A stretch of DNA of 64,000 bases, taken from positions 71,548,001 to 71,612,000 of the forward strand of contig OZ241830.1 of the NCBI GenBank assembly GCA_965202585.1, in the 5' to 3' direction. Source of the stretch: Thalia democratica. Lineage: Eukaryota. Below the pieces are notes generated by a model that saw only the letters and a program-made list of their open reading frames with translations, ran no database searches and was not told where the DNA came from. Below are positions 3,463-58,101 of this stretch, one piece after another. The translations under genes were made by a program, and so were the position numbers. Numbering within the stretch: the first letter of the stretch is position 1; every line of letters begins with the position of its first letter.

Positions 3463-3470
3463 TACTACTA

Positions 3471-3675
3471 TTTCTAACCCTCGATCATTTCTAACCCGAT
3501 AAAATAAAACTCGATCATTTTTAACCCGATAAAATCTGACTCGATTATTTCTAACCAAATAATATCTAACCCGATTACTTCTAACCAGATAACTTTTAAG
3601 TCAGTCATTTCTAACCCGATCATTTCTACCCAGATCGTATCTAACCCGATCACTTTTAACCCGATCAATCTACCA
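3471..3675. repeat. Degenerate ~15-bp tandem array with a telomere-like CTAACCCGAT core
   Basis: Repeated tttctaacccgat units. A paralogous array lies at about 34580-34725. It accounts for the 5-aa-periodic ORF 3474-3668. Confidence 0.85.
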
Positions 3676-4559: not shown

Positions 4560-5170
4560 AGTACGGAGCTACAACTATCACATCACAGTAATGAAAGAGT
4601 TTACAACTATCACATCACAGTAGTGAAGATTTAACAACTATCACATCACAGTAGTGAAAGAGTTTATAACTATCACATCACAGTAGTGATAAGTTTACAA
4701 CTATCACATCACAGTAGTGAAGAGTTTTAAACTATCACATCGCAGTAAAGAAGAGTTTACAACTATCACATCACAGTAGTGACAAGTTTACAACTATCAC
4801 ATCACAGTAGTGAAGAGTTCACAACTATCACATCACAGTAGTGACAAGTTTACAACTATCACATCACAGTAGTGAAGAGTTTACAACTATCACATCACAG
4901 TAGTGAAGAGTTTTAAACTATCACATCGCAGTAGTGAAGAGTTTACAACTATCACATCACAGTAGTGACAAGTTTACAACTATCACATCACAGTAGTAAG
5001 GAGTTACAACTATCACTTCACAGTAGTGAAGAGTTTACAACTATCACATCAAAGTAGTAAAGAGTTTACAACTATCACATCACAGTAGTAAATAGTTTAC
5101 AACTATCACATCACTGTAGTTATGAGTACAACTATCACATTAAATAGTGAAGAGTTTACAACTATCACAC
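4560..5170 (+). repeat. 31-bp minisatellite, about 19-20 copies (ACAACTATCACATCACAGTAGTGAAGAGTTT)
   Basis: Directly visible tandem units with a 30-31 bp period and no spacers. Confidence 0.95.
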
Positions 5171-6244: not shown

Positions 6245-6535
6245 TTATACTACTGTTATGTGATAGTTGCAGCTTCTCACTAGTGTGATGTGATAGTCGT
6301 AAACTCTTCACTACTGTGATGAGGTAGTTGTAAATTCTTACTACTGTGATGTGATAGTTGTAAACTCTTTACTACTGTGATGTGATAGTTGTAAACTTAT
6401 TACTACTGTGATGTGATAGTTGTAAACTCTTTACTACTTTGATGTGATAGTTGTAAACTCTTCACTACAGTGATGTGACAGTTGTAACTCCTTACTACTG
6501 TGATGTGATAGTTGTAGACTCTTCACTTCTATGAT
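6245..6535 (-). repeat. Inverted copy of the 31-bp minisatellite, about 9 copies
   Basis: Units actactgtgatgtgatagttgtaaactctt are the reverse complement of the 4560-5170 unit. Confidence 0.9.
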
Positions 6536-6539
6536 GATG

Positions 6540-11266: not shown

Positions 11267-13890
11267 AATTTCTGAATTAACATACCAAGTTTATTTTGAT
11301 TTAATTCTGTTTTTTGGTTAAACTGTTGAAAAACTTACTGGAAAAAAAATCGGACCTGGTGCACGATAACCTTTTAGTTATCGAGTCGCAACCAACGTAT
11401 TTCTTTCAAATTTTTGTCCCGGGCAGTATGTCCAGGACATTATGTCCAGAACAGCATGACATTTAATTATGAATTAAAGCTTTTTAGTGTTAAAGTAAGT
11501 TACATGTATCTTAAAATAAATAGAGCTCACTGTTAAAAAAACAATAATCATAAATTTGAAACCTAAGCCATGTGGATAAAACAAGTTAATTTTATAATTA
11601 CCACCCTTGGTAGACAACTTTATAGTGTATATTTTGTAGCGCAAATTATCGAGACTTAAATAGAACTATTTATTGTAAACTTTTTAGCTTTATGGTTTAA
11701 GGTATGTTAACAAAATATTAAGCATTTTTAGTTTTTACTTTAGTTGTATGATCATCAATATTTTGAATGTCTAACTGCTCTGTAGAGGTAGAAAGTCATC
11801 TTATTTTTTTCTTTCAACTATTTAACTTCTATAATAAAGCTAGCGTAACGATTTCGATTGTAATGAAAATCGATTTTTAAATCAAAGTACTTTATTTTGT
11901 ATTATTTAGCTAGTACAGTTTTTTTTTTGCACATTTATTCATTGTAAAAGCATTTTAAATTAAGTTGTCTCAATTTCAATTATACAATTTGTTTATAGTT
12001 ATCTAACAGCTTTGTAAATATATTTCAATAAACAGTAGTTTAGTTTCAACCTATACTTATAACCTATTAAGATTGTAGTAAGTTCGAGTTACACTTTAAA
12101 CACCTACTTTATCAATTAAAGAGATCAGCCTAAAACTAGTTTTAGAAATATCTAAGGATATGATTATAGTAGCGCGTTATAGTCATCAACCGCCAGGCCC
12201 GCTTTATATAAATAACCAAGCATACCCATGGGTTAGTTTAAATGGACCAGTTTTAGTTTTATCAACTGCTGTTAAAACGTGCACCGTCCAAGTATTTATG
12301 TGTAGTTTGATTTTGGTACTGGTTTTAACTAAAAAATTTAAACGTAAGTCACTCATTTTCATAAAAGTTTATTTATTTATTTCGTTTAGCTCTTTATCCG
12401 AATATACTTGCTAAAAAACTGATAATAATGTAGTATAAATGTAATTATAAACAGTAGTTTTGAAATACGTAGCTAAAAATTGTTACCTCATAAAGCATAA
12501 AAGTCTGTTTAAAATGATGGAATTAGGATTGATTTATACTTAGCTGATTTGAAGTTGATTTTCATCTTTTTATTTTTTAAATAATGTATTTATCTTTTTA
12601 ATTTTAAGTTTTTCTTCCGTTTTTGGTTTCTAAATAAATATTTAGTTTTACTGTTTTTAAAACATTGATATTTATTATTTTTTGTTCATGTTCGCTCAGT
12701 ACTGTAACAGTTACATTAAAATACAAACAAATATTTTTAATTAAACAAATGTTTGTTTTAAGTAGGTTAACACATATTCTTACTAAGATTAGATGTAAAA
12801 AGATGCATTTTAAATAAATTAATTTTAAAATCGTTAACAACTTATTGAAAATTCAAAAAACAATCGTCATCAATTAAATTTTTTTTCAAATATTTTAGTT
12901 TTAGTTATGTTCACAAACAATATGAACAGTATTTTTGTTATTTAGAAACAAAACTCTGCACTTTTAGGTTGAAATGTTGTGTAAACTAATAATTAAAGAT
13001 TTTAACTAAATGTATATTATCATCTTTTTGCACTAACTTAAATTGCATTTATAATATAAATTTATAATCATCATTTAAGTAAAACTTAAAAAAAATTCAA
13101 ATACTTTCGAGTTATTAGTTTTAATCAAGCATGAAAATTACGTCAGTATTTTTTTTTTAATTGTAGAGACTATTTGTTTTATTATTATTGTAAGTTTATT
13201 GTCATGCGATGGACCCAGGCGTCAAAACCTAGGCCACTTATACAGAAAGACATACAACAAAAAGACAAAAATAAACCAAAATTGTACATTAAAAATGAAA
13301 AACAAAAACTGAGTTTAACTAATTAAAGTTTAAAAATTAACATAAAAACACCAAAAATTATAACACAAAATTTATAATTCCGGTGCTTCCGAAAAAAGAA
13401 CAACAATATCCTACTTCAACTTCACCCGAACAGATGGTTTCACTCCAAAACTGGTTTCACTTTCATTCGAACGACTGGCTTCACATTATTTGAACAACTG
13501 GTTCAGCTTTCATTTGAGTAACCGGCTTAACTTTTATCCATACAACTTGTTTCACTTTTATTCGTATAACTAGAACTGCTTTTATATGAACAACGTTTTT
13601 CTTTTTTCTTAGGAGAGCCTGCTTCATATTTACTTTCAAATCTTTAATACTCAGATAACTCAGCGTTTGTTGGACTTTCGTAGTAGCTGATAAATATTGA
13701 GAACACTGACTATAAACAAAACTTAAGAACCCAAGGCCTCTAGCACTTTAATAGCCCAATAAACTATGTATTAAGGAACAGGTTTTGTTATACACAGAGG
13801 AAAGGCGCCGCCAATAAAATAAAGCTATAGGTTTAACCAAATTAGACAAATACAATCAGTGGTTAATGAAGAAATAAGAACAAAAAAAAA

Positions 13891-16869
13891 TCACTTATGA
13901 ATTTTGCTAACAAAATATTTATTTAAATCAAACTTTTTTAACCTTAACCGAAAATGCTCAACTTTTTTACAAGAAACTAAATCGTTTGGAAGCTTGTTCC
14001 ATAATTCAACTGAACGATAAAAAAAAGAATTATGCCAAACATTATTATTGAAACTATGTCTGCATGTAAATTTTCTGCTGTTACCTCTCAGTAAATAAGT
14101 ACATTTATGAGGTTCAAAAATAGACTGTAAATTAATTGTAGTTTCACTACTAATCAGTTTGAAAAAAGTAATTAAGTCAAACTCAATCCTTCTATACTCT
14201 AAAGACTTAATACCAAGTTTTGAGAGTCTATCAAAATAAGATGTGTATGAGATGTTACAACGGTTGAAGACTATTCTTGTATATTTTCTTTGAATGGATT
14301 CAAGATGGTTAATATCTTTCTTCAGGTATGGAGACCAAATTGGTGTGTTGTATTCTAACTTAGGACGAATGTAAACGAGATAAATTTTTTTGAGAATGTT
14401 TATATCTGTAGATTTAAAACTCTTTAAAACTTGAAAAGAAATAGTTGATGCAATTTGATAAACGTAATTAATGTGGTGGTTCCATTTTAGGTTTTCAGCA
14501 ATAAAAATTCCCAGATCTTTAAACACTTTAGTTGAAGGTAACCTTATGTTGTTTATGCTAAATTCAGAAGTGATACTAGATGTATTTTTTTGAATGTTTA
14601 GAACCTGACATTTACTAGGATTTAAAACTAGTTTTCTTTCTTTTAGCCAATGATAAATTTTATCCAAAGATTTTTGTAGAATTGTGTTAGAATGGCTAAA
14701 AATTTTTGTATCGTCTGCAAAGAGATTTATGTTGCTATCGACATCTACTTCTAAAGCTATATCATTGATATAAATTATAAATAAAAGTGGGCCAATAACC
14801 CCTCCTTGAGGCACTCCACTGAAAACAGGTAAAGACTCTGAAAAAGTGTGACCAATAACTACTTTTTGGGTTCTGTTTTCAAGGAACTCTTTGAACCAGC
14901 TTACTAAACTTTTATGAATTTTGTATTGAGTTAAAGTCTTTATTAGTTTAAAATGGGATACAGAGTCAAAAGCCTTTTGAATGTCTGTGTAAATAACTTT
15001 AGTTGACTTATTGCTTAGAAATGAAACCAGCCATGAGTGTAAGCAATTCAACAGTTGATAACTAGATGATCGATTAGGTAGAAAACCAAACTGTTTATGT
15101 GAAATTAGCTTATTTAAAAAAAGGTGATCAAGTATTTTTAGAGAAATTATATGTTCGAAAATTCTACAAAAACTGCTTGTTAAAGAAATGGGTCTGTAGT
15201 TTAAAGGGTTGTACTTACTACCTTTTTTGTGCACTGGTATGACATATGAGACTTTCCACTGGTTTGGTACAGAGGATGTAGCTAGTGAACAATTAAAAAT
15301 TAGTGAAATTGGGAGAATTAGAGAATGAATAGTACGTTTAATAAAATATGAAGGAATGTTTTCAGGCGTTCTGATTATTTTATCTTTTAAATGATTAACA
15401 GACTTTATTATTTCATCATTGCTTATGAAGAAGTTTTTCATTTCCAGACACTTTTTACTAACAAGTGTAAAATTTTTGTCATCACAATCTTTAACAAATA
15501 CCTTTTGAAAGGACCTGTTAAAAAAAGAGGCTTTATCAAGTTCTGATATTATTGGAATATTATTTTCATTAATTAATACAGGTAAAGAAGGTGTTAACTT
15601 GAGCTTTGATTTTACATAGCTGTAGAATTTTTTTGAGTTTGTGTTTTGGCAAAAACGTTTTTCATGTTCTATGTTGAACACTTTCACTGCTTTTTCATAT
15701 CTTTTTGATACAGTTTTGTATTTTTCTATCATCTGCTTATCTAACTTACATTGTTTGTAGAGTTTTAGTTTTTCTCTTAACAACTTTTTTATATCAAAAG
15801 GATATGTTTTCATTTTTCTGTCTTGTTTAATCAAAGGCACAAATTGTTTGATTGAAAAGTTTATTGTTTTGGTAAATTTATCATAAAACATTTGTAGATT
15901 TTTTGAGTTGTTAAAAAGAACTTTCCAATTTATATCTGATAAAAATTTATTAATATTCTCAAAATTTGCTCTACGAAAATCTGGATAGAGTGATTTAGGA
16001 GATGGTTTTTTACTTTTGTGAACACTTATCCCAAACAAAATAACATTGTGATCATTTATATTTGTTAAAGGTGAATCAACCAAATGAAACTTAACTCTAT
16101 CTAATGCCATATAATTACAAAGCAGTAAATCGAGGATATTACCGTTCTTATGGGTAGGTGAGTCAATAAGTTGTGTAAGGAGATTATCTGAACAAAATTT
16201 AATAAAACATTTGTGACAGTCATTGTAGGTTGTGCTTGGGATATTCCAGTCTATATTTGGCAAATTAAAGTCACCTAAAATGTAAAAAGGAGACTGTTTT
16301 GGAATAAGGTTTCTGATTAAGTCGATCATGTTTGAAACAACAGCTAGAGATTTAGAAGAATTTGGAGGGATGTAGACACATAAAAATCTCAATCTGAGTC
16401 CTTTAAGAATCAAATCAAAACACAAAAATTCAAAACCATCAGATGAAACAAAATTAGGTTTTACTTCAATTAATTTTAAAAAGTTTTTAAATATAACAGC
16501 AACGCCTCCTCCCCTGCCTATTCTGTCATTACGGATTATATTATACCCTAGAGGACAAAAATTTGAATCAATAACATTTGAATTTAACCATGTTTCAGTA
16601 AAAAAAAATAAATCTAAATTTTGTGTACACATATAACATTCAATGAAGCTTATTTTGTTTAAAATAGATCTTATATTAGTATATGAAATGTTTAAAAATA
16701 AATCTCTACTAGAGGTTAAACTATTAGAAAAAACAGTGCCTGAGGCCTTAGTATTAGAACAATTAAAGATTAAACTAGATGACTTAAGATGCAAGTCAGT
16801 GTTTAAGCTAGACTTATTAGGCCCAGAGATCCTGGGCGTTAAACCGAAAGGGCAGTTGAGTACTTTCAA
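13891..16869 (-). CDS. CR1 ORF2: apurinic endonuclease plus reverse transcriptase, 992 codons
   Basis: APE motifs YTNIRS, FTETWL, GDFNLP, LDLLL, DH. RT motifs YRPISL, QFGF, DIQKAFDSV, GVPQGGVIGPLLF, FADD. CR1-type C-terminus YIRPKLEYNTPIWSPYLKKDI..LESIQR. The frame opens on TTG and its first ATG is codon 80. Confidence 0.97.
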   Translation of the reverse strand: MKVLNCPFGLTPRISGPNKSSLNTDLHLKSSSLIFNCSNTKASGTVFSNSLTSSRDLFLNISYTNIRSILNKISFIECYMCTQNLDLFFFTETWLNSNVIDSNFCPLGYNIIRNDRIGRGGGVAVIFKNFLKLIEVKPNFVSSDGFEFLCFDLILKGLRLRFLCVYIPPNSSKSLAVVSNMIDLIRNLIPKQSPFYILGDFNLPNIDWNIPSTTYNDCHKCFIKFCSDNLLTQLIDSPTHKNGNILDLLLCNYMALDRVKFHLVDSPLTNINDHNVILFGISVHKSKKPSPKSLYPDFRRANFENINKFLSDINWKVLFNNSKNLQMFYDKFTKTINFSIKQFVPLIKQDRKMKTYPFDIKKLLREKLKLYKQCKLDKQMIEKYKTVSKRYEKAVKVFNIEHEKRFCQNTNSKKFYSYVKSKLKLTPSLPVLINENNIPIISELDKASFFNRSFQKVFVKDCDDKNFTLVSKKCLEMKNFFISNDEIIKSVNHLKDKIIRTPENIPSYFIKRTIHSLILPISLIFNCSLATSSVPNQWKVSYVIPVHKKGSKYNPLNYRPISLTSSFCRIFEHIISLKILDHLFLNKLISHKQFGFLPNRSSSYQLLNCLHSWLVSFLSNKSTKVIYTDIQKAFDSVSHFKLIKTLTQYKIHKSLVSWFKEFLENRTQKVVIGHTFSESLPVFSGVPQGGVIGPLLFIIYINDIALEVDVDSNINLFADDTKIFSHSNTILQKSLDKIYHWLKERKLVLNPSKCQVLNIQKNTSSITSEFSINNIRLPSTKVFKDLGIFIAENLKWNHHINYVYQIASTISFQVLKSFKSTDINILKKIYLVYIRPKLEYNTPIWSPYLKKDINHLESIQRKYTRIVFNRCNISYTSYFDRLSKLGIKSLEYRRIEFDLITFFKLISSETTINLQSIFEPHKCTYLLRGNSRKFTCRHSFNNNVWHNSFFYRSVELWNKLPNDLVSCKKVEHFRLRLKKFDLNKYFVSKIHK

Positions 16870-17161
16870 CTATTTTGTTTTGTTTTATAACGTATCTTAT
16901 GTTCAAATTTTTACTTTCAGCTTCTGCTTGTTTTTGTTTTAGTTCAAATCTCAATTTTCTAAAATGTTCCATCTCTGATTTTGTTCGATCAATATTAATG
17001 TAGATACTAATTTGTTTTCCCAGATGCTGTATTTTAAGGTTTTTTAGACTCAACAGTCGTTTTCTGCTAGATTGTGTCAGTAGCTTCAAAATTATTGGTC
17101 TCGTTTTATTGCCGTTGTATTTACCGATACGGTATATTGTATCTAATTCAGTTTCTGCTAT
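16817..17161 (-). CDS. CR1 ORF1 C-terminal fragment (RRM/L1TD1-like)
   Basis: Hand translation IAETELDTIYRIGKYNGNKTRPIILKLLTQSSRKRLL...IYINIDRTKSEMEHFRKLRFELKQK...QDLWA*. The R-x-G...RP-I-I-L-K pattern is typical of LINE ORF1 RRM domains. It overlaps ORF2 by 53 nt. Confidence 0.8.
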   Translation of the reverse strand: MAETELDTIYRIGKYNGNKTRPIILKLLTQSSRKRLLSLKNLKIQHLGKQISIYINIDRTKSEMEHFRKLRFELKQKQAEAESKNLNIRYVIKQNKIVESTQLPFRFNAQDLWA

Positions 17162-17719
17162 CTAGTTTTTAAGGATAATTTCACCATAATTTAAATTTGA
17201 TTATTATATGTCGTTTAGAAATATAAATACTAAAGACTAATAAGTGATACTTTAAGTTAGAAAAGGGTTTACAAAAAAAAAAACTACCATGATTCTTGTG
17301 TTCACAACATTTATTTTATAATTTATAAAATATGATTGAGTTTTGAAATTTACAATAAATATTACAGGAAAATTAAATAGCATTTGGATTTGATAAATAA
17401 CACTGTATCACGATTCGGCAGATCTTAATTTTAGGCATCCAATAGATCACTTGCTTAAATTTATTAAAAGGTTTCACTTTCAGGAAAAAAGTTTAGTTAT
17501 TGCTTTATAATTTTAATTTTGCTTTTGTGAGAAAAAACAAATTTTTAAACTTTCGAAGAGAGGATTTATTGAACCTAAAAAAATTATATAATTTAAAATG
17601 ATTGTATTGAAAACTTTTTTATATTTATATATTGTACATTAACTAATCTATTGTTTTTAATTAGATTGGTCTATATGTAAAATTAAATTAATATATTAAA
17701 AATTATTTGTAAATTTTAT

Positions 17720-33408: not shown

Positions 33409-35164
33409 TACAACAAATATGGAAACATTCTTTTAATTTGGATCTATATGTACAGTAGTGCTTTTCTTACAAGCATATATTAATAATTTAAAGTTCTTAT
33501 AGTTCGTTAGTATCCTTACTGTAATTTTTTAAATAACTCAAGTATTTCATTACTCAAGATTTTTCAAATAACCTAAGCCCTCAAAATAATCTTTTTTCCT
33601 GGTAAATATTACTAGGACACTAGAAAAGTTGCAAGCCCTATTGTACAACAAAGTGTATTAAAAGTTTGTCTTTAAAGTCAGTCTTTTTTGCCTGTTACAA
33701 ATATGCACCTTTTATATATATATTTACTTTCACCAGTGTAAAAAATACGAAGCTTTGTAACATACAAATGCGGTTTTAATATTTATTGAACGACAACTTT
33801 AAAACTTATCTCTAAAAAACTTAAAAAAAACCGATACTTTTCATAAAAATTGGTGATTAAATGCACTTTTCTAAAGTATCATTTATGTAGTTTTTAGTGA
33901 TACTGTGTATACTAAAATTAGTGATTGGTTAAATTTTAATTTTTACATATATTCTTTGGTATTAAGTAAAGATTTACTGGATTAAAAGTTTTTATCTAGC
34001 TACATTCAAGTCAAGTTTAAATTTGAATTTTGTGTTAAGAATTTGAATCTTTAAATGATAAGATTTTCTTAAAAAGGTATTTTTCATTATTATATTAGCT
34101 ATAGTCCTGTCCTTGACTAGACATTACAATGTATCCATGTGCCTCGATAACCTTAAGGTTCTTCCAGGGTTGCCAAATGTTTTTGGAAAAATTTTTCCAG
34201 GTTTTCAAAATTTCTTCCAGGCTTTTAAAATTACACGTTTTAGGGTTCAATTTTAGTTTGAAAATAAGTTTAAGTAAAATTTTTATTTTTTTCCATCAAG
34301 TTGTTAAAAAGTTTTTCACGTCTGCTGCTGTTTTTTTTTTTTATTATAACTTGGTTTTGATTTTTGAAAAATATTTTGCAAACTTTTTTTAACTGGAATT
34401 GTTTGACTGAGTAATATATTTACATATCTTCGATTATTTTTTTCTATTATAAAGACAAGTTAGTAATTAATTTTAACTATTAGATTTTTTAGTTTCTTAT
34501 GTTAAAAAGATTTCGTTTTAAACTTACAATTTAAAGCATTTTTTAAATTATCAATAATAAAGTATTTTAAGGGATTACTATCATTTCTAACCCGATTAAA
34601 TCTATCTCAATTTTTTCTAACCCAATAACATCTAACCCGATTACTTCTAACCAGATAATTCCTAAGTCAGTCACTTCTAACCCATCATTTCTAAACAGAA
34701 CATATCTAACTCCATCAATCTACCATCAAGTAAAAATTTGATTTCATTACATTTTTTTGATGATAATATGTCATAAAATTAACAATAAAGTTGTTTTATA
34801 ATAGAAAATAATTTACATTCTCTCAAAGAAAGCTTAGTAGTTATTTAGTTTTAATTCTAATAAATTTTCTAATAAAATTTAGTTTAACCTATACTATTTC
34901 AATTTATGTCATATTTTTTATTTTATACTTTTATCAATTACATAAATCAAACTTTTTCATTTATATTGTATAAGATTCACCACACAGTTTTTTAATATCA
35001 TGAAATTGTTCTTTGTTTGACTATGTAAACTGTTGAAACTAAATTTAAGTTAGACCTCTTTGTCATTTACGTAAGTTAGATAATTTTAACGTAATTAAAT
35101 GAAAACTGTTTAACCTTTAAAAACTTAATTTTCATATACAAAGTCTTTAAATTACAATCTATAA
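33409..35164 (+). repeat. Copy B of the dispersed duplication (partner 1300-4104)
   Basis: Collinear with copy A but lacking the palindrome insertion and about 450 bp. It ends at the left TIR of the Buster element. Confidence 0.9.
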
Positions 35165-52939: not shown

Positions 52940-55900
52940 ATCTAGACTAAATCACTAATTTTTAGCTGACAAGTAGGTGTTCAAACACTTATACTAAAAA
53001 ATAAGAAGTGAATATAAGGTTCTGAGTAAATAGTTGAAGATTAAAAGCACAGAAATAAACTAACTTAAATAAACTATCTGTTAAGGCCTCTTTAGTTGTA
53101 AAAAAGTATTAAAATATTAGAACTTTTAATAAAGTGTAATGTTAGTCTCAACGGTCTTTCTTTGATTTTTATTTTGCTATTTTGTATATGCTTGTATTAT
53201 TCAACAATAAAGTGACGAAGTTTAAATTATTAAGTTTATGATTTTAGCTTTTAGATTTTAAAGTTACAGTTCTTTAAACAAACTTCGGTGTATACTTTAA
53301 AACTTCTTTATATAAAACTAATAACATCTTTTAATGCTTAGAGAAAGATAAATAGAGTGTTATAAAGAAGAACCTAAAGATTTTTTTAATGTATCAACCC
53401 TAAAAAACCGTTTAGAAAAAAACTTAAATTGTTTTAGTAAAAGTATGTAAATTACTGCTATTTTACTCGGAAAACCGACTATACACAATAAAAAGCAACC
53501 GAATCAATGTTATTTTAAAATAGAACAAAAGAATACTTTACTTAAACTAAATTCATTATAAACATTCAAAGGCACCCGTATTTTTTTGACTGCATTTTGA
53601 AACAAAATTACTTTATAGTTTAATTTTTATTTCTTTTTTTTTATTGTGCAAGCGTTGGACTTGAGCATCAGCATTCGAGCCGCTAAAACAAAAATCAGAT
53701 AAAGATGAAATACATAAACTTAAAGAAACAAAATATAAAGCAGACAAAATTAAACACTAAAAAAAACGCACAAAACATAAATTGTTATTACAATAGAAAT
53801 AACATGAACACTAAGTGTAAAAAATGAACACATCATTTTTAGGTAAACGGTTTTTATGAAGCTCCTTTGAACTAGGGCTTCCAAAACTTTTATTCAAAAG
53901 GCCCCCTTTATAGAAATTAAAAATGCTATGGCCCCTCAAACAAGATTTCTCTAAAAACAGCTTCTTTTACAAGAAAATTATTGTTAGATAATTGTTTTAG
54001 TTAATAAAAAAAAACTATACAGTAATCTTCTATATTGTACCAACATATGTTTATGTGTGTTAACGAATAAACACACTTCAACTGGATTTTTAATGGAAAG
54101 AAATGGTTTTATTTTATTTATATTCCAGTGAACTTGTTTCACTAAGATCTTTTCTTAGCAAACGATTAAATCTATCTTTTGAACAGAACAGTTATTTCAG
54201 TTAATATGTATTTACTTTTAGTAAATATAAGAATGTGATCATAAAAGAGTTTATGTTTACTATTTAAAATTTAAAAAGAATTAAAAAGGAAAGTTTTTTT
54301 TTCCCGAGACTTCAAACCAAGTGTAGTCAATCATTGCTTTTATGGGTTAAACAAAATTTATTTTATTTATAAAAAATTAAAGCAATTTTTTCTTAGAGCA
54401 TTTCTCTTCAACAACATGTTACAACATTGAATAAAGCAACTAAATTACTTAAAAATTTATTACACAAAAACATAATAAAAAACTTTATTATGATTTAAAA
54501 CATTACTTGACATTGATAGAATTAAGAAAACCTTTTTACCTTACAACATTGATTTATTGTTTTGAAATTTTGTAAACCGGTTTTGCAATGTTTCATGATT
54601 TTTTTTTTAATTTAAAGTTTTTATTAGTCTTTGATATGCAACTGAGTCAAATACCTTTTGATTGTCAGTATAGACAACTTTGATAAACTCAATATCAAGG
54701 TAAGTAAACAAAAGTAAGTATTGGCCAAGAAAACAGGCACGTCAACAGCCGAATAGATGATTAGTAACTTGGGAAAAATATAGATAGTTCAGGTGTTAAG
54801 ATAAAAAAATGATTAAATTTTTTTTACACACAATGTATTCGAAAATTCTAAAAAAGCTACTAGTTAAGGATTGTCTACAGTTTAACAAATTATGTTTTGT
54901 ACCTTTCGTTGTGTAATGAAACAATGATAGTTCTAAAAGAAAAATAAACAATAACGATTTAAAGTTTTTTGGTATAGTAGATATTACAAAAGGGAAAATT
55001 AAAATTTAGAAACTAAGGAAACGTGATAGAACAGAAACTGCTTGTTGAATAAAATACAGTGGAATGTTTTCAGCTGATCTAAAACTTTTTTTTTAAATGA
55101 ATAATTGAGTTGTTAGTTTCATCGTAACTTATGTAAAAAATCTCCAACTTTATTGCAGATTTTGAGAGTTTGTTTAAAGCCTTAGTGGTCTTGGTTCTGT
55201 TAAAAAACATTTTGAAAATTTAAGAGTGAGGCTCTTTGAAAATAGAAGTCAACGGAACATTGGTATCATTGCAAAAAGATAGTGATGAAAAGTTTTAATT
55301 TCGAACTGACGGAGCTGTAGAACTTTTTTGAACTTTTTGCCAAAACTCTCACCGTCTTCAAACTTTTTTAATATTTAGAGTTATACATTTTAACAGCTAA
55401 CTGATACTCGTTTTATTTATCCTTATAGTTTTTGAAAAGTTATTTGCTTATCCTATATATTTATCAAAAGATAGTTTTGTATTAATATTGTTTAACAAGA
55501 GAATTTATTTTTCTCACTGTATAAATGAACAGAGCGTTTGATAAATTTTAATGTTAATCTAATTAACGTATCATAATTATGGTGTAAGATTGTTCCTTTG
55601 TTAAATAATGAAGTCTGATTTATGTATTGATATTAATACATTCTACTTTTTAGAATTTATGAAGTTTTTTTAGGGTTTGCTGCTATGTTATTTCCAGCTC
55701 TAATTTTAAGTGAAAACAAGTTGTCGTCAAAGCAGCTGTTAAAGGAATAATAACTGAATAGAATACCACTCTATATAAACCAAGATATGGTTGCAGGTTA
55801 TAAGATCAAGCATATTTACATTTTTGTGTGTTGGAGTTTCAATTATCTGAGTATTTTAATCAGTATAGAAACTAAGAAGGTTTTCATGGGATTAATTGTA

Positions 55901-58101
55901 GGTTGTACTGCGAATTTTCCAATCTTTACGTGGCAATTAAAAGTCTTTGAAAACACAAATAAACAGGTATTTGGGGAAAAGTATTAGTTAAATTAATTTT
56001 TTTTTTACAACTGATGAACATTTTTCGAGTTTGTTTTGAGAAAGGTATTTATAGAAAATTACATAGTTTTAAATTGCAAAAAAAAAACATCTACAAATAG
56101 ATACTAAAATTTAATTTTTTGTAACAGGAAAAGAAATTGTAGTTTGTATAACGTTTAAAGAATTTTTTTGAAGGACAGCAACACCTCCATCCCTACTTTA
56201 TTTATCTTTTTGACTAATTTCACTGATTTAAGGTGTCAGTTTAGTTTCAGCTAAAAGAGTAAACCAACATTTTTATAATCTTATTTAATCTAACTCCGTT
56301 TAAATTTTACAAAGCTACTTTTATAGTTTAAAAAAAAAAAACGTATTACTAACATTTTTAAAGACTTACTATTAATATTAAATTAGTAATTATCAATTAA
56401 ATTAATAAGTATTAATAATAAAATTAAATTATTTGTTTGTTTGTTTACTAATAAGTTATTAGTACTTATTAGTGCTTACACTGTCAGCTGCAAATCTAAG
56501 GCCCTTCTGATTGCTTCATGGTCGAAAATGACTTGAAACATTAAGGGTCAAAGGCTAAAAAGTAGTCCAATCAGAAGCCGTTTTGGTTTAAGAAGAAAAA
56601 TCACAAAAACCAGTTTTTGCTAAATGATGTTATAACACACCATATCCAGATTTCATTATAGAATAGACATTAAATCTCCAGGGAGCTGTATGAGGAAACT
56701 TATAGTAAGTTTAAATTAATTTTTAAGTAAAAGCTTTTTCTACAGTTAAAATAAAAAAAAATATAATATCTTTGAGTTAATCCTGTGTGACCTTTTAGTG
56801 TAAAGGTCTGAATGATGAATTCAAAACTCTTTGAGTTGAAAACTTTAAGATCAAAACCTAGTGGTTGATACATAAAAAAACTCTTAATATTAACCAAGTA
56901 AAAATAATTTTTTGTATATGTCTTATTAAGGCCATAGCATTGGTCCAAGTTTTTTTAAACATATTGAGTCTTAATTGAAATTTTAGAGTTTATCCTATAA
57001 GATACTTTTTAAAGAACAACTCTTAGTTTCCCAAACTTAAGTTTGTAATTTCCTTGTTTGGCAGATATTTAAAACAGTTTAAATTAAGTCCTAACCCCTT
57101 TTTATAAATTATTTACCTTTAGACATTTAATTTTTTGCTTATTACCAGATATTGCCCAACATTGCATATTTTGGGAAGTTTGTTTAAAATTTTATCTAAT
57201 AGTTAAATATTAAAAACAAGCTTACAAGCTACTGAGTGAAATTCTATGACTTCAAAAACATCAAAGTTGCCTCCTTTTTCCCTTTAACTTGTTTACTATA
57301 AGTGCTCAATAAAAGGCTTAATATCTCCCTTTTTATAAATCGTACTTAAATTTATGTTACAGAACCTAATTGTAATACCTAATATCTCTTTAATTTTTCT
57401 CGTAGAAAACCTATTTAAAGTAGCAGTTTGATACACAAAAAGACCTCTCCGTCATTGAGTTGCATACCCAACTAAATCAAAATTATAATGAGCTACAAAT
57501 GAAAAAAAGTTAATAGAATTAATTAAATTCTACACAAAAACTTGTTCTTTCAAAAACCTGCATTAAATTTGTAAAAAATTCAAAGCCTAGCCTGTTAAAA
57601 ATTTAAGTTAATTTATTTCTTTATATTTTAAGTGAGTTTTAAATTACTTTTACTTGTACCATAATTTGCTTGTGTAACTTTTCAACGTATTGTTTATTGG
57701 CTGCAAAAATGCGCTCAATAAGTATATAAAGTTATTTCAAATTAAGTGTTTCAAAATGTGTATGCGTTTGTAAATATCATTTTAAAAGTTATTTATTTAT
57801 TTTCTATAAATATTGTCATTAAGACACTTGAATTTAAATTTTAAGTTTCTACTAATGATAAATACAGATAACATAAACTATTGCATTTTTACAAATTGAG
57901 TGGAGTTTAGTTATTTTTCATTTTGAATTTGCTATATGTTTTTGACTTATTTAATCTATCCAGGTGGAGCTTCAATTTTCAAGTTATGTTTTTAGTATAT
58001 TATATCTTTGTTTTGTGAACCTACTTTACAAGTTTAAAAAGTTTGATGATTTTTTATTATCTAAATACTATCTGAAGTTATTCACATACTATTACTAGTT
58101 C

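Follow-up and report, generated by a model that had tools for sequence, protein, structure and literature searches.

A recoding-like cassette at the ORF1-ORF2 junction of a candidate CR1 LINE from Thalia democratica and its possible use for +1 frameshifting

How long interspersed nuclear elements (LINEs) that lack a start codon for their second open reading frame (ORF2) make their reverse transcriptase (RT) is an open question, and the tested elements, L1 and SART1, reinitiate. The question is raised by a LINE on the minus strand of a 64,000-nt stretch of the Thalia democratica genome (GCA_965202585.1, contig OZ241830.1, positions 71,548,001 to 71,612,000), called the window below. At the end of its first frame (ORF1), this element carries a real recoding-like cassette, CCC_UUU_CG followed 6 nt on by a predicted GC-rich hairpin, which on sequence grounds appears to be clade-wide. 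ORF2 is probably made there by a +1 slip of the influenza PA-X or PLEKHM2 type, likely with the assistance of the hairpin, giving a predicted ORF1-ORF2 fusion. An initial annotation of the stretch had proposed such a frameshift, and the proposal is supported here, as computational tests that could have refuted it did not overturn it.

The ORF2 frame runs from stop to stop over 992 codons and opens with a TTG, immediately preceded by a TAG in the same +1 frame (Table 1). Its endonuclease motif YTNIRS occupies codons 63-68, and the earliest ATG is codon 80. Asn14 of human L1 ORF2p has a catalytic role, and a profile alignment places the equivalent Asn in the first strand of ORF2, a strand that would be lost with an AUG start at codon 80. 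ORF1, which closes with tandem UAA codons, overlaps ORF2 by 53 nt, ORF2 being in the +1 frame relative to it. Every coordinate of the junction first described (TTG, codon-80 ATG, overlap, motif, hairpin and UAA UAA) was confirmed. In this copy ORF1 is 5'-truncated at about position 17167 and retains 114 codons of the 305 found in full-length relatives.

The candidate slip site lies six codons after the +1-frame TAG and nine codons before the ORF1 stop, and its setting is that of PA-X-type sites: the zero frame reads YCC_UUU_CGN at a point where an open +1 ORF has its 5' end and the zero-frame stop has yet to come. YCC_UUU_CG occurs once in the element and four times in the whole window on both strands. 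The hairpin GCCCAG-GAUCU-CUGGGC begins 9 nt past the UUU and 6 nt past the CGG; its fold of -11.1 kcal/mol was equalled by 4 of 200 shuffles (z -2.67), and it ranks second among the 25-nt hairpins of the 4-kb element, behind the 3'-terminal stem-loop. GC content reaches 49% in the overlap versus 29% in the element, where 14% of codons end in C, CCC encodes 1 of 37 Pro, GCC 1 of 15 Ala, and CGN codons 12 of 44 Arg. A -2 slip into the ORF2 frame was ruled out by inspection, re-pairing being impossible.

The element is a two-ORF LINE with an endonuclease of the apurinic/apyrimidinic type (APE) and a type II ORF1, made of a coiled coil, an RNA recognition motif (RRM) and a C-terminal domain. In ORF2, the Pfam families RVT_1, Exo_endo_phos and Exo_endo_phos_2 all score above cut-off, and L1 ORF2p is the top match among solved structures. 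A full-length ORF1 relative modelled with AlphaFold resembles human L1 ORF1p (2ykq, 2ykp and 2yko, E 3e-6 to 1e-4), and a PHD-like WxCxxC is present in 42 of 60 long ORF1 relatives. CR1-clade elements, in which overlapping ORFs were described in the 1990s, are recognised by an ORF2 without RNase H and without a C-terminal zinc knuckle. In this ORF2, RNase H gave no Pfam match and no CCHC pattern follows residue 760, which fits the CR1 clade; since L2-group elements share these absences, CR1 is a candidate label. Type II ORF1 is found in CR1 and in L2 lineages (PMC4120745).

Is the frame offset private to this copy? The family occurs in marine metagenomes and in two coded organisms. Among 49 close ORF1 records, 34 reach their natural end by an end-letter rule; 27 of these end as here and 32 keep the F-R of the slip site. 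Six full-length members of one subfamily are identical in 26-27 of the final 27 ORF1 residues, against 82-83% identity elsewhere. When 4 of 24 listed runs were aligned to 16540-17180, three gave 15, 119 and 224 contigs and the RNA run none, a count that weighs on neither side. Of 49 DNA variants, the 40 listed fall in 16575-16690 (18), in the linker (2), in 16886-16993 (14) or further 5' (6), and none in 16784-16885. No aligned contig has an indel within the overlap; a single one carries a 5-nt deletion, which lies just 5' of the overlap and would not fuse the frames. One marine metagenome contig covers 16679-17042 gap-free, from the ORF1 body to endonuclease motif I, and contigs of about 80% identity cover the overlap gap-free up to 16811-16826, where their alignment ends. 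With sister ORF1 ends identical and contigs gap-free across the overlap, a private indel is ruled out, and the merging of both ORFs into one frame in sister copies, which the initial annotation had named as evidence against a frameshift, was not seen. Similarly, no in-frame ORF1-ORF2 fusion exists among the best 150 of 721 ORF1 relatives retrieved by a library search, the longest of them having 517 aa.

These 150 relatives also show how far the cassette extends. A C-terminal strand could be aligned in 110, ten of which were removed (four by hand as misaligned, six failing the anchor pattern), leaving 100 anchored representatives that are mostly about 30% identical. A tail resembling P-F-R-x-x-P-Q-x-x-W-G closes 62 of them, a core set defined by F and W standing eight residues apart. 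In the columns that were left free by this definition, P precedes F in 55, F is followed by R, Q, H or L, each encodable with a first-position C, in 61 (R in 54) and by K in one, position +4 is P, A, S or T in 58, position +5 is Q, H or R (C-purine-N codons) in 61, and W is followed by a G-starting residue (G, D or A) in 58. Read through the genetic code, these substitutions appear to fit nucleotide rules (UUU_C kept; a stem of N-C-C-C-R with Y-G-G-G-N) better than amino-acid chemistry. The residue combinations at the outer pair of the stem are Watson-Crick compatible in 46 of 62 (P-G 35, A-A 8, S-D 2 and L-S 1), versus a mean of 27.2 and a maximum of 38 in 20,000 shuffles that ignore kinship, and on a quick tree of 56 of the 62, A-A arose three times and S-D twice. 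Among the remaining 38 representatives, 19 have, by eye, F followed by R, Q, H, L or P near the anchor, some with other spacing, and one distant ORF1 group is without the motif.

The other frame of the junction was approached through ORF2. Of 97 relatives, 31 group with the query in a supported clade (FastTree); heads were back-translated and scored against the ORF1 tail profile, 18 in-clade heads being testable and 15 heads too short. Five heads from distinct branches (34-44% identity), whose called N-termini extend across the junction (PFAGSPRISG, PFEISPSFAG, PFGLTPEFSG, PFDEIPSCTG and PFEVSPSLTG), score 34.9-43.3 bits in the +1 frame, whereas the other 13 reach at most 20.1 bits, 25 out-of-clade heads at most 29.7, and the +2 control frame of 43 heads at most 22.4. 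Pro-Phe followed by a G-starting residue in the +1 frame implies NCC_UUU_YG in the zero frame; likewise, the later Pro and the Ser/Ala/Thr-Gly imply NCC at the 5' arm of the hairpin and C-UGG-G at its 3' arm, so that some of the codons required are ones used rarely in this element. We regard these five heads as the strongest sign of selection on nucleotides, inferred as it is from ORF1 and ORF2 records of separate contigs; one pair of ORF1 and ORF2 lineages is compatible over eight codons, in the +1 frame only. The motif and hairpin, whose conservation had been proposed as a check, are thus kept in both reading frames across about 30% protein identity.

The same heads bear on the idea that splicing, trans-splicing or an internal start yields the RNA for ORF2, the stretch UUUAAC...CCCAG|G having the local look of a branch point and a 3' splice site. 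A CAG at the acceptor position is compatible with four of the five heads. However, 8 of the 62 tails carry H or R instead of Q; the codons CAY and CGN keep the stem but no longer supply the AG, and one head points the same way. This family, moreover, has no AUG between the acceptor and the endonuclease motif. We hold this origin to be scarcely probable.

According to the mechanism that we favour, the hairpin would pause the ribosome on UUU_CGG and a small share of ribosomes would slip +1 on the UUU, with re-pairing of the P-site tRNA-Phe; tRNA-Pro could also re-pair from CCC to CCU, the peptide remaining unchanged. The predicted fusion would join ORF1 residues 1-296 to ORF2 codons 9-992 (about 1,280 aa, in the order ORF1p-linker-endonuclease-RT) and could place the RT within the ORF1p trimer. 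Unshifted ribosomes would stop nine codons on and yield ORF1p, and the cassette would thereby hold the ORF1p:RT ratio high. YCC_UUU_CG sites give about 1% of +1 shifting via re-pairing of the P-site tRNA-Phe (PMC3498833, PMC11451614), and most 3' stimulators start 6-9 nt past the shift site (PMC5009743), a range into which the 6-nt spacer fits.

Several observations weigh against this mechanism. In influenza, CCC in place of UCC cuts shifting by 40-70%, and the stem-loop of PLEKHM2 has a weak effect at most (PMC11451614). The nucleotides of distant members are deduced from proteins, as scans yielded no cassette-bearing DNA: metagenome scans returned 0 and 1 loci (the second covering 54 of 64 parts), viral scans 0, and genome scans 0 and 3. 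In 16 of the 62 tails the outer pair is broken under Watson-Crick rules, and the tree-corrected covariation is not significant, only two independent pairs being on well-supported branches. The distance from W to the stop ranges from 1 to 42 residues (2-42 in 33 of 62), but is a single residue in 29 of 62, so that the stop is mostly near the hairpin. The ORF1 tail is modelled as a short helix with a predicted local distance difference test score of 74-77, a moderate confidence at which a protein-level constraint may exist. Lastly, probable AUGs occur close to the junction: three of the five cassette-bearing heads begin at one in the N-G codons of ORF1, one lineage has an AUG 6 nt past the slip site and 20 nt before the ORF1 stop, and in a sister ORF2 of 90% identity the called start matches query codon 19, one base past the ORF1 stop.

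The helix and the non-significant tree-corrected covariation would suit an alternative that takes P-F-R-x-x-P-Q-x-x-W for a protein motif of ORF1p, the slip site and the hairpin for by-products of it, and ORF2 for the product of some other route. A subclade with another spacing keeps the W in a context like W-A-x-L-F, which could be read in the same way. However, a protein motif cannot fix synonymous positions, and the five heads force CCC-type, UUU, CG and NCC codons; in addition, the residues found in place of R are Q, H or L rather than K, and those in place of Q are H or R rather than E or N. We therefore judge this alternative very improbable. An ORF1 subclade (P0146, P0150, P0182, P0197, P0096, P0128, P0140 and P0194) has S/T/V/K-W-A/S-x-L/I at its end, resembling a short protein motif, and several of its members keep F followed by a C-starting residue, with a different spacing to W.

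The AUGs lead to termination-reinitiation, whereby ribosomes would end ORF1 and restart on ORF2 near the stop, at an AUG or a near-cognate codon (here ACG 16839, AAG 16815 or UUG 16794), with the hairpin or UGGG retaining the 40S subunit. This route is reported for SART1 and human L1 (PMC2881922, PMC5972666), and is in line with the AUG 20 nt before the stop, with the sister start one base past it, present in 4 of 15 listed members of that subfamily, and with stops directly behind W-x in 29 of 62. The conserved UGGG also resembles motif 1 (UGGGA) of the calicivirus termination upstream ribosomal binding site (TURBS). However, reinitiation does not account for the constant 6-nt distance between NCC_UUU_CG and the hairpin downstream, or for the +1 reading that is open through the site in five lineages, while start positions are unconserved and the stop floats by up to 42 codons. 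In a TURBS, UGGGA is exposed in a loop far ahead of the stop (a region of about 45 nt in influenza B), whereas the sequence here is UGGGC, 2-5 nt from the stop and predicted to be paired. Neither is there a SART1-type UAAUG overlap, the junction reading UAA UAA G, although one sister subfamily may have a near version of this coupling. The initial annotation had taken an upstream in-frame AUG in sister copies as a sign against frameshifting: such AUGs are present in some relatives, but their positions differ between lineages, and the cassette is kept in each lineage that could be checked. Gene callers also write M for GTG and TTG. We consider reinitiation unlikely as the source of ORF2; on account of the probable AUGs it nonetheless stays the chief competitor, or a possible additional route.

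Initiation at UUG 16869, internal or by leaky scanning, is favoured by the position of this codon at the very start of the open frame and by one or two relatives whose called starts fall in that region. The codon is, however, about 860 nt inside a 305-codon ORF1, at an unconserved position and 32 nt from the hairpin, which makes initiation there highly improbable. Among the 31 in-clade ORF2 representatives, 11 are called from inside the endonuclease, which counts in favour of the +1 slip, although two of these 11 clusters have members with longer heads; if the slip is real, gene callers cut such ORF2s short.

Returning to the +1 slip, the hairpin may have a distant partner. A hairpin-centred scan found a stretch of the putative 3' untranslated region (UTR) whose pairing with the junction (16837-16810 with 13765-13729) reaches -30.1 kcal/mol versus -17.7 for the local folds; in this post hoc test it was matched by 1 of 200 shuffled UTRs and 2 of 200 shuffled probes and was the best non-self block of 180. 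An earlier long-range test, by exact 9-mers and whole-region duplex, found nothing special, and cross-pairing of the junction with the terminal stem-loop, whose arms (13235-13211) resemble those of the junction hairpin, gave no gain over two local hairpins. It is conceivable, if quite doubtful, that a two-tRNA +1 slip on CCC_UUU_C works with a switchable roadblock, either the local hairpin or a stronger 26-bp helix with the 3' UTR, 3 kb distant. Full-length RNA would in that case be the main source of RT, which would reach, as a fusion with ORF1p, the very RNA encoding it. If true, such a switch would offer a mechanism for cis preference.

The closest known sites are viral and vertebrate. Influenza A PA-X uses UCC_UUU_CGU (PMC3498833) and amalgaviruses use UUU_CGN for an ORF1+2 fusion (PMC5052127); as here, the upstream frame carries UUU_CGN where a +1 ORF has its 5' end, and in amalgaviruses a coiled-coil ORF1 is fused to a polymerase, as proposed for this LINE. 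The present site differs in belonging to a LINE, in being preceded mostly by CCC and in having a conserved hairpin at fixed spacing on its 3' side; PA-X shows no evident stimulator. Vertebrate PLEKHM2 (UCC_UUU_CGG, about 1.3% shift; PMC11451614) and the predicted ASXL1 site share the YCC_UUU_CG class, the CGG A-site codon and a noted 3' stem-loop, nearly dispensable in PLEKHM2; these are cellular genes that swap a C-terminus, whereas the shift here would yield an essential enzyme. Frameshift ideas for LINE ORF2s already exist: a -1 shift is said to be needed in Dictyostelium TRE5-A and TRE3-A (PMC5911963), and +1 shifting, reinitiation or readthrough was suggested for Paramecium LINE groups 1-3 (PMC5405496). 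These are likewise APE-type elements, but of other clades and hosts, with the opposite direction in TRE, and the passages cited give neither motif nor stimulator. No UUU_CG-type site in a LINE was found in the literature searched, of which Repbase reports and most subscription papers are not a part. As in yeast Ty1 and Ty3 (PMC5911963), a retrotransposon would set the ratio of structural protein to RT by a +1 slip, although Ty1 and Ty3 are elements with long terminal repeats. With SART1 and human L1 this LINE would share a bicistronic RNA and an ORF2 dependent on ORF1 translation, and its relatives share the type II ORF1p fold with L1; on the contrary, SART1 and L1 reinitiate and make a separate ORF2p (PMC2881922, PMC5972666), where a fusion is proposed here. 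If the slip is true, PA-X-type +1 sites would extend to mobile elements of eukaryotic genomes, possibly with a conserved RNA stimulator, and a non-LTR element would make a Gag-Pol-like ORF1p-ORF2p fusion. The shift sites of Ty1 and Ty3 differ from CCC_UUU_CGG. The cassette being short and clade-wide, the question can be put directly to a reporter.

Other LINE sequences met during the scans offer a different solution. In two distant LINEs from outside the clade, L001 (1013-1021) and L007 (1475-1483), ORF2 follows in frame directly behind UGA-CUG and UGA-CUA, without an early AUG, and UGA-CUA is a readthrough context of alphavirus type (PMC13517186). These readthrough candidates hint that fusions are tolerated and a recurrent solution, although a single nonsense mutation could also explain them. 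In L007, a PHD-like finger and a 2A-like stretch, VEVNPGP, are further features of the ORF1 frame. The cassette is absent from the examined ORFs of L001, L007 and L009, and L008 begins inside the endonuclease. L007, L008 and L009 are LINE sequences of eukaryote type in three bacterial metagenome-assembled genome records, probably through contamination or misassembly. A degenerate-pattern scan returned five viral loci, none with a LINE protein, which were dismissed as chance.

Table 1. Junction and element features, numbered along the window.
Feature	Positions	Strand	Basis
ORF1 3' remnant, last 114 of 305 codons (end of RRM and C-terminal domain)	16817..17167	-	ORF comparison with full-length relatives; loose contig ends at 17167
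+1-frame TAG, upstream of which no shift or start could lead into ORF2	16870..16872	-	sequence
ORF2, 992 codons, AP endonuclease and reverse transcriptase, +1 frame	13891..16869	-	ORF list, Pfam, profile alignment
Candidate +1 slip site CCC_UUU_CGG (YCC_UUU_CG class)	16844..16852	-	sequence and conservation
6-nt spacer of two codons, same in all 62 core relatives (fixed by the set definition)	16838..16843	-	sequence
Predicted 6-bp GC-rich hairpin GCCCAG/CUGGGC, 5-nt loop	16821..16837	-	fold and conservation
Tandem UAA UAA ending ORF1	16814..16819	-	sequence
Endonuclease motif I YTNIRS, upstream of first AUG	16666..16683	-	sequence, profile alignment
First in-frame ATG of ORF2, codon 80	16630..16632	-	sequence
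Stretch of putative 3' UTR able to pair (~26 bp) with 16837-16810, candidate partner at long range	13729..13765	-	hairpin-centred scan
Predicted stem-loop before A/AAT-rich tail, likely 3' end of element	13211..13235	-	fold scan

The terminal stem-loop is likely part of the element, judging from the longest contigs of full-length ORF1 relatives (4,974-5,124 nt). A target-site duplication was searched for around the element and not found, and the 64-kb window holds no sister copy. Rfam gave a single match (E 0.4), taken as chance, and only unnamed look-alike clusters were matched in the Atlas. The putative 3' UTR includes a degenerate 24-nt tandem repeat of 5.7 copies (13438-13571), overlapped by an 88-codon open frame (13481-13747). 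A decayed second LINE ORF2 of 30-49% identity, without a recognisable junction, lies at about 54550-55981 on the minus strand. Elsewhere in the window, 31-nt tandem arrays occur in opposite orientations at 4570-5169 and 6249-6536, and 15-nt tandem arrays of one kind at 3470-3667 and 34580-34699.

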